DNA of 32,000 nucleotides from Candidatus Heimdallarchaeota archaeon B3_Heim (GCA_003144275.1 NJBF01000005.1:60001-92000); one strand, 5' to 3'. Positions 10,817-15,953 are shown, numbered from the stretch's first letter. Notes: generated by a model from the letters alone, not told the origin. Numbers and translations are program-made.

Positions 10817-10846
10817 CACAACTAAATAATCAGAAATCAAGTCATT

Positions 10847-10921
10847 GGGCCGATAGCTCAGCTTGGTAGCAGCGCCTGGTTTGCATCCAGGAGGCCGTGG
10901 GTTCAAATCCCACTCGGTCCA
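10847..10921 (+). tRNA. tRNA-Ala(TGC), intronless, CCA not encoded
   Basis: Acceptor GGGCCGA/TCGGTCC with the G3:U70 Ala determinant, anticodon arm CCTGG-TTTGCAT-CCAGG, T arm GTGGG-TTCAAAT-CCCAC, discriminator A. The D stem has a C13-C22 mismatch. Confidence 0.97.
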
Positions 10922-11063
10922 TATTATGCTCTTTTAATAATTTTCACTTTGCAAAACAAATCTACGTAATTTTTGAGAACAGCAAATAATTTCAAATAGC
11001 CGATAGGTATTTTTAAGACAATAGATAGCGGTTTGTAACAAAAAAGGTCAAGATGAGCTGCAT

Positions 11064-11279
11064 CTAAGCAAATAAAGATCCAAGTTCTCGTAATAGCTCA
11101 TCTGCATTTATCAAAAGCCAATCTAGAACTCCTGTAACGATCGAAAAAATGAGTAAAAAACCGAATAAACTCAATCCTATCAATATTCCTTCTTCCACAA
11201 GTGGGGAACCTCTTCTTTTAGTTCGTATTCTTGTTTTTATTGAATGAATTCCTTTCAAACTATTATGCCTTTTCATCAT
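11064..11279 (-). CDS. Small Flp-like/class III signal peptide prepilin
   Basis: Basic leader ending KRRG, then SPLVE (Glu at +5) and a long hydrophobic helix. Predicted mature protein about 47 aa. GGTGG upstream. Confidence 0.65.
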   Translation of the reverse strand: MMKRHNSLKGIHSIKTRIRTKRRGSPLVEEGILIGLSLFGFLLIFSIVTGVLDWLLINADELLRELGSLFA

Positions 11280-11316
11280 TCCACCATGAGATCAAGAAAA
11301 ACATTCTTTATAATAT

Positions 11317-11330
11317 CCCTAAATTTAGGG
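11317..11330. promoter_or_regulatory. Perfect 14-bp palindrome CCCTAAATTTAGGG in a divergent intergenic region
   Basis: Self-complementary sequence between the divergent prepilin and GTPase genes, next to TTTATAAT at 11307-11314. Function inferred only. Confidence 0.35.
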
Positions 11331-11382
11331 TTTTTTTAGGAGTTTAAATTGGACTCAATTACTAAGGAATTAGGTGTAATTA

Positions 11383-11973
11383 TTGCAGTTAGTTCCTTCG
11401 AAAGAAAAAAAACCATTGAAAATAGTCCTTTTGGGAGAAGGGGGTGTAGGAAAAACAACAATTTCGAAATCATACATCGATAATTATTTTTTCACAAAAT
11501 CGAAACAAACAATTGCAGTAGAGTTTCATTCAAAGATTATTACTCATTCTGATAAGGGAGTGAGCAAGCTACAGATCTGGGATCTTGGTGGTCAAGAGCA
11601 TTTCAAACACATGGGAGTCTTTAGTGAATTTTGTAAGGGCGCAGATGCTGCATTACTTTGTTTCGACCTTACTGATCTTTCTTCATTATTCAATCTAAGT
11701 GAATGGCTTGAGTTTATCACACCTGCTATTCCCCGATTTTTAATTGGTACAAAATCCGACTTAGCAACTCAAGATGAGAAAAATTTCGATTTAGCGAGAT
11801 ATATTCAAAGGTTTAATTGTATAACTTCTTTTAAATGTTCAGCTAAAGATTTAAAATCGGTTATGGATATTTTTGAGAAAGTTCTATTGGCAATCGAAAG
11901 AAAAAACAGCAAATTAACGAACATGTCTTCAGGTTCAAATACTCAATTATCTAATAAACTATTAGTTTCATGA
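11383..11973 (+). CDS. Rab-like small GTPase
   Basis: G1 GEGGVGKT, G2 TIAVEF, G3 WDLGGQE, G4 TKSD, G5 SAK. No C-terminal Cys prenylation motif. TTG start. Confidence 0.95.
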   Translation: MQLVPSKEKKPLKIVLLGEGGVGKTTISKSYIDNYFFTKSKQTIAVEFHSKIITHSDKGVSKLQIWDLGGQEHFKHMGVFSEFCKGADAALLCFDLTDLSSLFNLSEWLEFITPAIPRFLIGTKSDLATQDEKNFDLARYIQRFNCITSFKCSAKDLKSVMDIFEKVLLAIERKNSKLTNMSSGSNTQLSNKLLVS

Positions 11974-11983
11974 GGAATTAACG

Positions 11984-12733
11984 ATGCAAAAATTATTGAG
12001 AAAAACGATAAATGCGCGATCTTCGCGGATACCTAGCGGAGTAATCGGTTTTGACAACCTTGTAAATGGTGGATTTAGAGAACATTCGGTCAACGTGATT
12101 ATTGCGGATCCTGGGTGTGGAAAATCCACTTTTTGCTGGCAGTATTGTTCATCTGATCTACACACTCCAGCTCTCTATGTGTCATTAGAGCAAAATATAA
12201 ACTCGGTATTAAGAGACTGTAGTGATATCGGATTGAAAAACTTTGGTGAAAAATACAGAGAGGGGAATTTACAATTCCAAGTTGCTTTTAATGTCGACTC
12301 AGAATTAACTTCAGGAGAAATTGGTTTAAGATTTTTTATGAATGAGCTCCCTAAATATCTTGAAGTAATAAAAGAAGCCGCTTCAAAATATTTGGGAGGA
12401 ATACGTATAGCAATTGATCCTTTGACGCCATTACTTCTAGAAATTTCAGACCCTAATCAACAGCGTAACGCAATCAATCGAATTTTTTCTTCTCTTAGAG
12501 AGATTGGAACAGCCGTAGTCACATTAGAAAAAGGGTTTGGAGATGTCTTAGCTAGAATCCCTCTTTTTCTATCCGATTCCATCATAGAACTAGAACATAT
12601 TGGATTAGGAGGCATCTACAATCGAACAATGAGTATTAGAAAATTTAGAGGATCGTCACACTCTGAAACTCCTCAACCTATCAGTTTTCAAAAAGAAAAG
12701 GGATTAATCGTTCATGATATCTCCAATAAGTAA
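11984..12733 (+). CDS. Single-domain KaiC/RAD55-like (RecA superfamily) ATPase
   Basis: IPSGVIGFDNLVNGG, Walker A ADPGCGKST, YVSLEQ, RIAIDPLT, SDSII, arginine finger RKFRG. Confidence 0.9.
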   Translation: MQKLLRKTINARSSRIPSGVIGFDNLVNGGFREHSVNVIIADPGCGKSTFCWQYCSSDLHTPALYVSLEQNINSVLRDCSDIGLKNFGEKYREGNLQFQVAFNVDSELTSGEIGLRFFMNELPKYLEVIKEAASKYLGGIRIAIDPLTPLLLEISDPNQQRNAINRIFSSLREIGTAVVTLEKGFGDVLARIPLFLSDSIIELEHIGLGGIYNRTMSIRKFRGSSHSETPQPISFQKEKGLIVHDISNK

Positions 12734-12734
12734 T

Positions 12735-13163
12735 ATGGATGATCAGGCTTTAAAATTATCCAGAGCAATCTCATCAATCCAAATAGAAGCTGACCATCTT
12801 TTTAAATTTCGAGATGTAAGAGCAACAATTCTTTTTCGCTTAGATGGAAGAGCTTTAACCGCTTTTTATGATCCAAAAACTTCTAGTTCTATTCTAACGG
12901 TTATTAAATGGGTTAAAGACATTATTTCAAAAACAAAAGAAGAACTCAAACATGGTGCAAGATCTATAAAATATAATAAACAAATAGATCAAAATGAAGC
13001 ACTTCCAGTTTATTTCTACCGTACTGGCAACTCAGGGATTTTAGTTGTGATATTACATTCTAGGGCGAATACTGGATTCATGGAAATAGAGATGAGCAGA
13101 ACTGCGAAGCGTTTAGGAATAATAATAGATAGAAAACAATCAATAGGTGATTTAGAGCAATGA
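12735..13163 (+). CDS. Roadblock/LC7 (MglB/LAMTOR-like) domain protein
   Basis: VRATILFRLDG and GILVVILHSRANTGFMEIEMSRTAKRL fit the Roadblock pattern. ATG 12735 lies 1 nt after the upstream stop. Confidence 0.7.
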   Translation: MDDQALKLSRAISSIQIEADHLFKFRDVRATILFRLDGRALTAFYDPKTSSSILTVIKWVKDIISKTKEELKHGARSIKYNKQIDQNEALPVYFYRTGNSGILVVILHSRANTGFMEIEMSRTAKRLGIIIDRKQSIGDLEQ

Positions 13164-14533
13164 AAACTTCCGTTGGACTATGTATAAATCACGATTTAAA
13201 ATTCGCAACGAAGACAGCTCTTCAACAAGCTGAAACAGAGTTAAATACAGAACCAACTGGAATTCTTTACTTTACAGGATCCCATCCTGGTGGTAAGAAA
13301 GTATATAATCAATCTTTAAAGATTATCAAGAAAAAATATTCAACTATTCCTTTAGCAGGATGTTCGGGAACTGGAATAGCGAATAGTAAGGATTATGGTC
13401 TGAAAGGAGCTGCAATCATGCTTTTTTCAGGTATATCGGTCAGTACACATTTAATTAAGCGTTTCCGTCTTAGGACTGGAACCAAAACCAAAGAAATTCT
13501 AAAAAAATGTATAAACATTGAAAATAAAGAATTAAAACAGAATTCTTCTACAAGTTTCATCTTTTTTCCTCCTGGTCTAGGATTTCCGAAACTTATGGTA
13601 AATTTAATGAATCATAGACTCGAAGGGTTTAATCCATTTTTTGCCTTAAATAATCGAATCTGGAGGGATGTACCAGCTCTTTCCCGGTTCACAGGAAAAA
13701 TTGTTAATTTTCTCATGAATCTCTTTGGCATTGGAATATCATATTCATCAGCATGGCCCTTATTTCAAGAATTATATCAACGAGGTATTCATTATACCGG
13801 TACATTTGGGGTAGATCCCATTTCAATGAATAAATCTTATCAATTTTACAATTATAAAGCATTTAAAGATTCTATGACATTTATATCACTTAGCTCTCCT
13901 GATTTAAGATTCATGAGCAAAACTGATACTGGAGCAACGATAGATTTCCGGAAACCTTTCTCTCTTGACAGTTATTTGGATGGAGGATTTATTCCGCGGA
14001 TAGATGGTCAATGGGGAGCAAAATCTTTACTTAAAATATATGAAATGGAGAATACTCCAGAAATTCTTGAAGAATGTACCCAAAAATATTTCTATTACCA
14101 CCCCTTTAAGCCTTTATGTATCTTAGACGATAAGAAGAGTCAAAATTTATATGGACTTTCAATAAACCCAAATCTTAATCATGCTTTAATTACTGCACCG
14201 AATCAGGTTGCTAAAAAGCTATATGTTAATCATAAAGATAAATACCAATCGTATATCTGTAATCAAAGTGCGGTAACAATTGAGAATTTACTAGATGAAA
14301 GCTTATCCTCGTTAGTTGGAAACAATACAAAATTTGGCCTATTCTTTGATTGTGGTAATCGTGCAATGATTGTTGGAGATCGATTTCAACAGTATATGGA
14401 ACATTATGCCCAGATATTAGGAAAAATTCCGTATCTTGTCATTATATCTGGAGGGGAGGTTAACTCTCAATCATTCCCCATTGTTAATTTCAGTTTAGTC
14501 TCTAGTGTTGCACAACAGCTTACTCCTGCTTAG
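13160..14533 (+). CDS. FIST N/C domain sensory protein
   Basis: N-terminal IPLAGCSGTG; C-terminal GLFFDCGNR...IPYLVIISGGEV. ATGA overlap with the Roadblock gene. Confidence 0.8.
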   Translation: MKTSVGLCINHDLKFATKTALQQAETELNTEPTGILYFTGSHPGGKKVYNQSLKIIKKKYSTIPLAGCSGTGIANSKDYGLKGAAIMLFSGISVSTHLIKRFRLRTGTKTKEILKKCINIENKELKQNSSTSFIFFPPGLGFPKLMVNLMNHRLEGFNPFFALNNRIWRDVPALSRFTGKIVNFLMNLFGIGISYSSAWPLFQELYQRGIHYTGTFGVDPISMNKSYQFYNYKAFKDSMTFISLSSPDLRFMSKTDTGATIDFRKPFSLDSYLDGGFIPRIDGQWGAKSLLKIYEMENTPEILEECTQKYFYYHPFKPLCILDDKKSQNLYGLSINPNLNHALITAPNQVAKKLYVNHKDKYQSYICNQSAVTIENLLDESLSSLVGNNTKFGLFFDCGNRAMIVGDRFQQYMEHYAQILGKIPYLVIISGGEVNSQSFPIVNFSLVSSVAQQLTPA

Positions 14534-14549
14534 TCAAGAATTTTTGTTT

Positions 14550-15953
14550 ATGAACAGGAGATTAAACAAATTGTTATATGTTGATACCTTATTGGGTGTA
14601 AAATATTATCCGAAAGAACTGAAAAACCTCACAATGAGGTTTTTTAGTCTTGAACTCATCATTACAGTAATTTATCTTAGCCATGCATGGATTTCTTTAT
14701 ATTATATCTCAATTCTTGGATCATACGCACTTTTTGGTAGTATCGTAGCCATTGGTATGTTCTTTGGGATTGTATTAGATCTTCCATTAGGGGTGCTCAC
14801 TGACAAGTTTGGTCAAAGAGGGGCCTTTTGTGCGGCTTTAGGATGTTTAACGATTTATTACCTAGGATTAATTTTTGCTACGAATTCGTTTCAGCTATTA
14901 TGTCTTGAAATATTAGTAGGGGTATTTTCTGCCCTTCTTTCAGGTTCATTTATTGCATGGTTTCTGAATTCTTGGGAGAATCTCGTGGATAGAAATGAAA
15001 AAAGTGAGATACTATTTCGAAGTACAATGGGCAATGTAAAATTCGTTAAAATGATCGCAGTTTCCTCTTTAACTATTTTGGGAGGAATTTTATTGTACCA
15101 AGTGCATCTAGCTCCCCAATTGATATTTTTATTACAGGCATTTATTGCATTAGTGGGTTTCATTCTTGGATTCATTATTATGGTGAACTATAACCCTGTA
15201 GGGAGGAATATAGGTCTTCGTTTAACATCTGAGAATAATAAATCCCATCCTTTTTCAAATATTAGAATTTTGGGGAATAATTTACGTATAAAATACCTCG
15301 CTGTCTCACCCTATTTTCTTAGTTTTGGGATCCTTAGTTTTACTTCACTAGCTTTTACAACTATTGTTTTTCCATTAATTATTTATTCCTTATTATCTTC
15401 TGATAACGTTGTGAATGGAGAATATGTCAAAATTGATTTTAGTTCACTCGCTATATTGATTATATCTTTAATTAATTCTATTACAGATTTTATATACGGA
15501 ATTTCAAGTAGGTTTTCAGGTAGATTCACATCATTTATTAAATCTCCCCGTCAAGGATTAGTTGCATTTTATACTCTGAATTTCCCTCTAGCTTGGATTT
15601 TATTTTTCTTTATTCTCCTAGTGAATATCAGTTATTATTGGCGACTGATATTTATAATTATTATTTTCTTGAGTCGGCTCATTATCAGTGGGTTGACCTC
15701 AGGACTTCATTGGCATTTATATTACGATATAACACTATCAGAATATCGAAGCTCTCAAGAATCTTATTTGAATACGTTATCTCTCACAGTCTCTATAATC
15801 GGATTTAGCATTCTTGGATTAATTTTGGAGAAAATAGGATTTTTAGAAACGTTACTATTTCTTTTCATGCTTAGCGTTATTGGAATCCTCCTTCTGTTTA
15901 AAGCAAAGGAACCTGGATCAAAAAATTCAACAAACCTAAGGAACTCAAAATAA
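14550..15953 (+). CDS. Major facilitator superfamily transporter
   Basis: About 12 hydrophobic segments; motif A LGVLTDKFGQR. ATG 14550 is preferred over the TTG at 14505. Confidence 0.88.
   Translation: MNRRLNKLLYVDTLLGVKYYPKELKNLTMRFFSLELIITVIYLSHAWISLYYISILGSYALFGSIVAIGMFFGIVLDLPLGVLTDKFGQRGAFCAALGCLTIYYLGLIFATNSFQLLCLEILVGVFSALLSGSFIAWFLNSWENLVDRNEKSEILFRSTMGNVKFVKMIAVSSLTILGGILLYQVHLAPQLIFLLQAFIALVGFILGFIIMVNYNPVGRNIGLRLTSENNKSHPFSNIRILGNNLRIKYLAVSPYFLSFGILSFTSLAFTTIVFPLIIYSLLSSDNVVNGEYVKIDFSSLAILIISLINSITDFIYGISSRFSGRFTSFIKSPRQGLVAFYTLNFPLAWILFFFILLVNISYYWRLIFIIIIFLSRLIISGLTSGLHWHLYYDITLSEYRSSQESYLNTLSLTVSIIGFSILGLILEKIGFLETLLFLFMLSVIGILLLFKAKEPGSKNSTNLRNSK

Follow-up and report, generated by a model that had tools for sequence, protein, structure and literature searches.

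Do five closely packed genes in an Asgard archaeal genome encode one signalling system and, if they do, which of them form its core? The window analysed here is a 32,000-nucleotide stretch of DNA from Candidatus Heimdallarchaeota archaeon B3_Heim (GCA_003144275.1 NJBF01000005.1:60001-92000), and named relatives place its source genome in the Hodarchaeales, class Heimdallarchaeia, Asgard, among the near relatives of eukaryotes. Between positions 11383 and 15953, on the + strand, lie five co-oriented, closely packed open reading frames (ORFs). An earlier note had read these as an operon for a small-molecule-sensing switch, made up of a Rab-like GTPase, a KaiC-like ATPase, a Roadblock protein, a FIST-domain protein and a transporter of the major facilitator superfamily (MFS). 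We consider it probable, with moderate confidence, that the genes form a conserved operon encoding a kinase-free module for signalling in the cytoplasm, with a dimer of the Roadblock protein as its hub. The features discussed below are these:

11383-11973, + strand: Rab-like small GTPase of the Ras superfamily, 196 amino acids; TTG start with AGGTG 8 nucleotides upstream
11984-12733, + strand: single-domain KaiC-like (RecA-superfamily) ATPase, 249 amino acids; matched by Pfam KaiC
12714-13163, + strand: Roadblock-fold protein of the AF0774 family (PF27410), 149 amino acids; an alternative start at 12735 gives 142 amino acids
13160-14533, + strand: FIST-fold protein (FIST_N and FIST_C), 457 amino acids; ATGA overlap with the Roadblock gene
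14550-15953, + strand: MFS transporter, 467 amino acids; alternative GTG start at 14505
11280-11382, + strand: putative promoter and 5' leader, read from the sequence alone; A/T-rich 'TTTATAAT' near 11307, and AGGTG 8 nucleotides before the TTG start

The order of the five genes is conserved, and the operon-like cluster described in the earlier note is real. GTPase-KaiC-Roadblock-FIST-MFS recurs in 11 of 42 named species loci, from records mostly labelled Hodarchaeota. A second arrangement, KaiC-Roadblock-FIST-GTPase without the MFS gene, is found in 24 of the 42; these loci carry the label Heimdallarchaeota, and Heimdallarchaeum aukensis, H. endolithica and AB_125 are among them. All other loci are interrupted by a contig end or an assembly gap, except for one complete locus that has no GTPase gene (L038, below). 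An apparent loss of both the KaiC and the GTPase gene from a Hodarchaeales 'chromosome' (L037) was ruled out, the region being an assembly gap with runs of N. A FIST orthologue is present in all 21 genomes of the genus and in 28 of 31 genomes of a second Heimdallarchaeial family, and the KaiC, Roadblock and FIST genes are single-copy or have clear reciprocal orthologues.

One might suppose that these genes are neighbours through inherited synteny alone and share no function. The whole region from the RIO kinase gene to secY is indeed syntenic within the genus, and hence conservation of order within the genus is of little weight by itself. Between the two arrangements, however, the proteins are only 20-35% identical and the flanking genes are all different, so an inherited syntenic block does not explain the linkage: the four core genes have stayed together across families despite different flanks and a rearranged order. 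Neighbouring genes also share nucleotides where one ends and the next begins, one protein joins an AF0774 domain to a Ras domain, and the predicted complex of the Roadblock and FIST proteins reached the mark set for it (both described below). We regard synteny alone as an extremely improbable explanation. The association of the genes in dozens of species, down to such low identity, indicates a grouping that is more than chance.

The earlier note treated the five genes as one fixed unit, and this part of its reading does not stand. The gene distribution points to an invariant core of KaiC, Roadblock and FIST alone, with the GTPase and MFS genes as changeable members: the GTPase gene relocates or is lost, and the MFS gene occurs in Hodarchaeales only, if one sets aside an unrelated MFS gene in a single further lineage. 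The AF0774 gene lies directly 3' of the KaiC-like gene in every unfused locus examined, usually overlapping it. The GTPase gene opens the cluster, at its 5' end, in Hodarchaeales and closes it, at the 3' end, in loci labelled Heimdallarchaeota. In one Hodarchaeales locus (L038:4431-4827; JBHLKP010000038.1) the order is RIO-KH-pilin-KaiC-Roadblock-FIST-MFS, with 235 nucleotides in the place of the GTPase gene, which has the appearance of a clean loss. In G397, a distant Asgard genome (L075:3753-8613), KaiC-Roadblock-FIST is followed by an MFS gene, with no GTPase gene within 6 kb and a longin-like gene divergently upstream. The most divergent locus examined, in GCA_001914405.1, which we take to be a euryarchaeon of Methanonatronarchaeia, has KaiC, AF0774 and then a 452-amino-acid 'AF0772_C' protein whose resemblance to FIST is weak but specific (FIST_N E 4e-4; hhalign probability 77%, E 2e-5). 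This distribution argues that the KaiC-Roadblock-FIST core predates the link to the GTPase.

The spacing of the genes is consistent with an operon. The gaps of 10 nucleotides between the GTPase and KaiC genes and of 16 nucleotides between the FIST and MFS genes were confirmed, as was the ATGA at 13160-13163 by which the Roadblock and FIST genes overlap, and through which the FIST gene appears to be translationally coupled to the Roadblock gene. The gap of 1 nucleotide that the earlier note had placed between KaiC and Roadblock holds only if the latter starts at 12735, and it is probably an overlap of 20 nucleotides. Across loci the KaiC and Roadblock genes overlap by 4-20 nucleotides. Since orthologous Roadblock proteins open with 'MIS...', which fits the ATG at 12714, and since gene calls in close relatives give a protein of 149 amino acids with a 20-nucleotide overlap onto the KaiC gene, we place the Roadblock start at 12714 rather than 12735, as the more probable of the two.

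All five family assignments were borne out, by Pfam for the GTPase, KaiC, FIST_N and MFS, and by fold tests for Roadblock and FIST. The Roadblock protein of the window matched no model, Robl_LC7 (PF03259) included, in the Pfam library used, which does not contain PF27410, and its only match in NCBIfam was a chance-level one to MglB (E 0.013); its relatives score 15-21 bits with Robl_LC7, against a cut-off of 23. A profile of the window protein and its orthologues matched, over its full length, a Roadblock protein from Thorarchaeota whose crystal structure is in the PDB (7f8m; E 2e-6). The AlphaFold model (predicted local distance difference test (pLDDT) 89) has the topology α-β-β-α-β-β-β-α, and Foldseek aligned it with structures of MglB and of Asgard Roadblock proteins (9jue, 3t1r, 1j3w, 7f8m; E 3e-7 to 5e-6, probability 1.0). 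On the strength of this model, the third gene's product has a Roadblock/LC7 (MglB-like) fold. Relatives carry a precomputed Pfam annotation as PF27410, 'AF0774', and the family is small, with only 48 relatives recovered by HMMER from 1.84 billion representative proteins. One of these, a metagenomic protein of 337 amino acids (P0119; L102:5001-6014), has an AF0774-type Roadblock domain fused to a Ras-family GTPase domain, without a KaiC gene nearby, and is a hint that AF0774 Roadblock proteins work with small GTPases.

The second gene's product matches Pfam KaiC (PF06745) at 6.5e-29, and its profile matches KaiC structures at 7e-59. Across families the cluster KaiC is a clear reciprocal orthologue, scoring ~105-130 bits against ~50 bits for paralogues. 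In the orthologue alignment the Walker A residues G44, G46, K47 and T49, the catalytic E69 and the Walker B D145 are invariant. It is not a circadian KaiC proper, which has two tandem KaiC domains in about 500 amino acids: this protein has one domain in 249, and it falls far under the cut-offs of the NCBIfam circadian KaiC models.

The first gene's product matches Pfam Ras at 2e-31. Its orthologues have a complete set of G1-G5 motifs (GxGxVGKTT, T43, WDxxGQ, [NT]KxD and S153 are invariant), and hence this protein, like the KaiC-like ATPase, looks active. Against PDB sequences, 60 of the 60 best matches were Rab or Ypt proteins, at E about 1e-34. The C-terminal tail has no cysteine (the protein has cysteines at positions 84, 93, 146 and 152 only) and thus no prenylation or lipid-anchor motif; because this cysteine is absent, we use 'Rab-like' to denote similarity and not membership of the Rab family. 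The Gtr1_RagA model scored 21.2 bits, under its cut-off of 22, and over residues 13-76 only, and the protein has no C-terminal roadblock domain. The genome has about 41 GTPase-like ORFs.

GTPase and KaiC genes also meet elsewhere in this genome, where three of the five KaiC-like genes come after a GTPase gene. Two further pairs of co-oriented GTPase and KaiC genes account for this: at C4:9001-14100 the order is GTPase gene, 65-amino-acid ORF, KaiC gene and LplA, and at C10:22001-31000 it is GTPase gene, KaiC gene, 80-amino-acid ORF and a ThiF/E1-like gene. The pair at C4 was found again in a genome of the same genus, and a similar pair in G397.

The fourth gene's product passes the Pfam cut-off for FIST_N (29.2 bits against 23.2; 1e-6) and falls slightly under that for FIST_C (25.3 bits against 28.5). 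Its AlphaFold model (pLDDT 80) resembles the FIST domain of human FBXO22 with Z scores of 21-21.7 and a root-mean-square deviation of 3.2-3.4 Å over 260-280 residues (the best being Z 21.7, 3.2 Å, 264 residues); the next fold follows at Z 13.6. A profile of the family matched no PDB sequence, and FBXO22 was found by fold comparison only. The model indicates that the protein has a FIST fold. A check of the two folds had been set beforehand, on 12735-13163 for Roadblock and 13160-14533 for FIST, and the Foldseek and FBXO22 matches agree with both. NosP-type FIST proteins, which sense haem/NO, have a conserved haem-ligating histidine and an associated histidine kinase. In the alignment of the present family no histidine is conserved at 60% or more, which makes a haem sensor of the NosP type less likely, and just one cysteine is conserved; the cluster has no histidine kinase gene either.

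FIST proteins that are more distant occur in other Asgard families, where they adjoin other Roadblock proteins, without KaiC. One such locus (L082:4050-10571; also L080 and L083-L085) encodes a Roadblock protein of 139 amino acids, a 330-amino-acid protein of no known family, a gelsolin-like protein of 165 amino acids, a FIST protein, LuxE and LuxC.

As no other structure matches nearly as well as FBXO22 (Z 21.7), the FIST protein could be a protein-recognition adaptor tied to ubiquitin-like modification, as FBXO22 is, with the Roadblock protein, KaiC and the GTPase gating the choice of substrate. Several neighbourhoods agree with this: a gene for a UFM1 E3 ligase/DDRGK-like protein lies divergently beside the Heimdallarchaeota-labelled clusters, the FIST-adjoining Roadblock protein of one lineage has a weak DDRGK-like region (E 0.023), and a second GTPase-KaiC pair of the genome precedes a ThiF/E1-like gene. 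Each of these hints is, however, either weak or limited to a lineage; genes for an F-box protein, an E2 or an E3 are absent from the window, and a common fold does not prove a common function. We judge a ubiquitin-type adaptor to be very unlikely. The UFM1 E3 ligase/DDRGK-like gene is at L024:3697-4506 (-), L026:3867-4625 (-) and L098:4245-5003 (-), and the Heimdallarchaeota-labelled loci also have, 3' of the GTPase gene, a conserved ORF of 106-128 amino acids that belongs to no family.

Returning to the module with a Roadblock hub, we modelled a Roadblock dimer together with the FIST protein, as three chains with custom alignments, a set-up that differs from the one in which the tool was calibrated. 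The model scored 0.79, against 0.50 for the best of three controls, a mark that 58 of the 80 solved complexes and 2 of the 110 mismatched pairs in that calibration had attained. Three runs agreed in at least 84% of contacts, and the partner had a pLDDT of at least 85. On the Roadblock side, the predicted interface consists of the β5-α3 loop and the first half of helix α3 (residues 110-126) of both copies, with the invariant N112, E119 and R122. On the FIST side it consists of residues 79-82, 296-309, 368-372 and 402-410, and of these Q369, S370, I404, G406 and D407 are invariant or nearly so. Part of the conserved FIST surface is thus predicted to contact the Roadblock dimer, and the model supports binding of FIST to that dimer. 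We know of no solved complex of a FIST and a Roadblock protein, and hence memory of a solved complex is an unlikely source of the model's score.

The fifth gene's product is an MFS transporter, by a score of 34.9 bits with Pfam MFS_1 (cut-off 33.4), a motif A ('GVLTDKFGQR') and some 12 hydrophobic segments in a crude hydropathy scan. A role as ligand sensors has been proposed for FIST domains. The earlier note had made possible import by this protein part of the logic of the whole system: FIST would sense a molecule that the transporter brings in, KaiC and Roadblock would set the state of the GTPase, and the result would be a nutrient sensor like Rag-Ragulator-SLC38A9. The MFS gene does follow FIST in every untruncated Hodarchaeales locus, and in G397 a different, non-homologous MFS gene (MFS_1 7e-39) lies 78 nucleotides downstream of KaiC-Roadblock-FIST in the same orientation. 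The 24 Heimdallarchaeota-labelled loci and the divergent, non-Asgard trio of GCA_001914405.1, however, have no MFS gene. Because the gene is missing from these loci, ligand import cannot be core logic, and the distribution suggests that the MFS gene is an addition to the cluster specific to Hodarchaeales. The absence of a conserved histidine and the presence of just one conserved cysteine in the FIST family, the predicted contact of its conserved surface with Roadblock, the recognition of a protein by the closest solved FIST domain (that of FBXO22) and the Rab-like rather than Rag-like character of the GTPase tell against the import sensor as well, and we think it unlikely.

The reading that we favour instead is a module whose ancient core would comprise a single-domain KaiC-like ATPase, catalytically intact by its motifs, a dedicated AF0774 Roadblock protein and a FIST-fold protein. 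A Rab-like GTPase with all catalytic motifs would have joined this core in Heimdallarchaeia, and the MFS gene would have been added at the 3' end in Hodarchaeales. The Roadblock protein would dimerise to form the hub, and FIST is predicted to dock on one face of the dimer, with the GTPase expected on the face opposite. From what is known of these families, the dimer might serve as a platform for the Rab-like GTPase, of the GTPase-activating protein (GAP) or guanine-nucleotide exchange factor (GEF) type, as MglB does for MglA, and the KaiC-like ATPase might set the state of this platform by ATP turnover or autophosphorylation. FIST would bring the input, in the form of a small ligand or a protein partner, and the MFS protein would provide a lineage-specific input or output outside the core. 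As the earlier note had said, no histidine kinase is present: none of the five proteins has a HATPase match in Pfam.

Several observations weigh against this reading. The homology of FIST and the euryarchaeal AF0772 protein is drawn from weak scores. The GTPase appears to be dispensable in some lineages, to judge from L038 and G397. Between the two arrangements, the GTPases do not pair as reciprocal best matches, which raised the possibility that each arrangement had recruited its GTPase independently. A tree with the paralogues of this genome leans towards a single origin, the cluster GTPases of both arrangements forming sister groups with support of 94/73, and we consider a single origin moderately supported; the grouping nevertheless unites two long branches, and the paralogues come from one genome only. 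In the predicted complex, conserved residues are just mildly enriched at the interface (about 5 observed per side, against about 3 expected). An unrelated control protein of 488 residues reached 0.50 with the Roadblock dimer, and the dimer is therefore 'sticky' in the model. Lastly, the three-chain, custom-alignment set-up departs from that of the calibration.

A bolder version of the same reading goes further. It sees an ancient archaeal, kinase-free KaiC-AF0774-FIST trio with a Roadblock hub, to which Heimdallarchaeia recruited a Rab-like GTPase, and regards this as an ATP-driven prokaryotic forerunner of the Ragulator-like, Roadblock-based platforms that regulate GTPases in eukaryotes. On this version, binding of FIST to Roadblock would also be a new mode of FIST signalling, possibly related to the recognition of proteins by the FIST domain of FBXO22. 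We consider this version doubtful.

The flanks of the cluster are archaeal housekeeping genes, for RNA polymerase A'/A'', a RIO kinase, a KH protein, tRNA-Ala and a SecY with a Sec61 plug. Divergently upstream of the GTPase gene, at 11064-11279 (-), lies a prepilin-like gene of 71 amino acids that adjoins tRNA-Ala(TGC) at 10846-10922 (+) and is kept at the same position in all Hodarchaeales loci for which the upstream flank was recovered. A pilin at this place raises the possibility of a switch like MglA/MglB for polarity or for surface filaments, in which the GTPase and Roadblock protein would place or assemble a pilus-like filament and the KaiC-like ATPase would act like ArlH of the archaellum. 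It would agree with this that the Roadblock model resembles MglB structures and that Roadblock and KaiC-like genes have been reported at archaeal type IV pilus loci (PMC4858521). The pilin gene, however, belongs to a genus-wide syntenic block (RIO-KH-tRNA-pilin ... SecY) and is absent beside the Heimdallarchaeota-labelled clusters and beside the trio of GCA_001914405.1. Furthermore, the GTPase is Rab-like and not MglA-like, and the cluster contains no pilus assembly genes. We regard a filament switch as quite improbable, and retain the kinase-free module with a Roadblock hub as our preferred reading.

The cluster matters for the study of Asgard GTPases. An Asgard archaeon has dozens of small GTPases, and in the cultured Asgard archaeon MK-D1 the genes for these do not, in general, share an operon with a Roadblock or longin gene (Tran et al. 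2024; PMC10933270). Because such genes rarely share an operon, the regulators of Asgard GTPases usually cannot be assigned, and the cluster in the window is an exception that names likely partners for one of them. Its four soluble proteins are a defined set of partners, open to tests of binding, of GAP or GEF activity and of control by ATP. The cluster ties the AF0774 Roadblock family and archaeal FIST-like proteins, for neither of which we found a functional or structural study in the literature on Asgard or other archaea, to the GTPase systems regarded as forerunners of membrane and nutrient signalling in eukaryotes.

The earlier note knew of no description of this combination, and we found none: full-text literature searches that joined KaiC, Roadblock, FIST, GTPase and Asgard, and that did not extend to a 2017 survey of KaiC, returned no account of the cluster, and a search on 'AF0774' returned no relevant paper. 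The existence of PF27410 and PF27411 indicates that the families have at any rate been registered by curators.

How does the cluster compare with known systems? In Asgard archaea, a predicted operon with a LAMTOR1-like Roadblock protein, a Rab-like GTPase and a DENN protein has been described (Liu et al. 2021; bioRxiv 10.1101/2020.10.19.343400), and it resembles the present cluster in that a Rab-like GTPase and a protein of the Roadblock superfamily are accompanied by a third, larger protein. The large protein here, in contrast, has a FIST fold, and a KaiC-like ATPase is present, which the text of the preprint does not mention. The Pfam DENN model has no match in this genome, and no DENN structure is listed among the matches of the FIST model, although the DENN call of Liu et al. 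used more sensitive methods. The idea that our FIST protein is their 'DENN' protein was rejected on grounds of fold, as judged from the text of the preprint. Because of the FIST fold and the KaiC gene we conclude that, as far as that text describes their operon, the two are most likely distinct.

The similarity to Rag-Ragulator drawn in the earlier note is one of logic only. Rag, Ragulator and SLC38A9 also bring Roadblock proteins, a small GTPase and a membrane transporter into one unit, a likeness that is purely conceptual, whereas the cluster has no Rag-type GTPase (its own is Rab-like, as described above) and no multiple LAMTOR-like subunits, and its transporter is not conserved with the core. 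KaiC-like ATPases are said to have been put forward as archaeal signalling hubs by Makarova, Galperin and Koonin (mBio 2017), and the cluster agrees with this idea in that a single-domain enzyme of this kind has a conserved gene neighbourhood, in which putative input and output proteins are encoded. In the literature searched, no paper brings KaiC, Roadblock and a GTPase together in Asgard archaea.

By logic, the nearest systems are MglA/MglB and the actinobacterial conservons, and the cluster differs from both in their defining parts. As in MglA/MglB, a small GTPase gene adjoins a gene for a Roadblock-fold protein, and Foldseek aligns the Roadblock model with MglB at E about 5e-7 and a template-modelling (TM) score of 0.65-0.7. 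Here, however, the GTPase is Rab-like, and the Roadblock protein is a KaiC-linked AF0774 protein paired mainly with a KaiC-like ATPase and FIST, both foreign to Mgl. Actinobacterial conservons consist of CvnA, a sensor kinase-like ATPase, CvnB, a Roadblock protein, CvnC, a DUF742 protein, and CvnD, a GTPase, and thus share with the cluster an operon logic of sensor, ATP-using protein, Roadblock protein and small GTPase. In place of CvnA and DUF742, for which none of the five proteins has a Pfam match (HATPase or DUF742), the cluster has a KaiC ATPase of the RecA type and a soluble FIST protein, and its GTPase is of a different subfamily, so that the analogy is a functional one. We view the cluster as a probable variant of GTPase/Roadblock signalling built on a KaiC-AF0774-FIST core, in a combination that is new to the literature searched.

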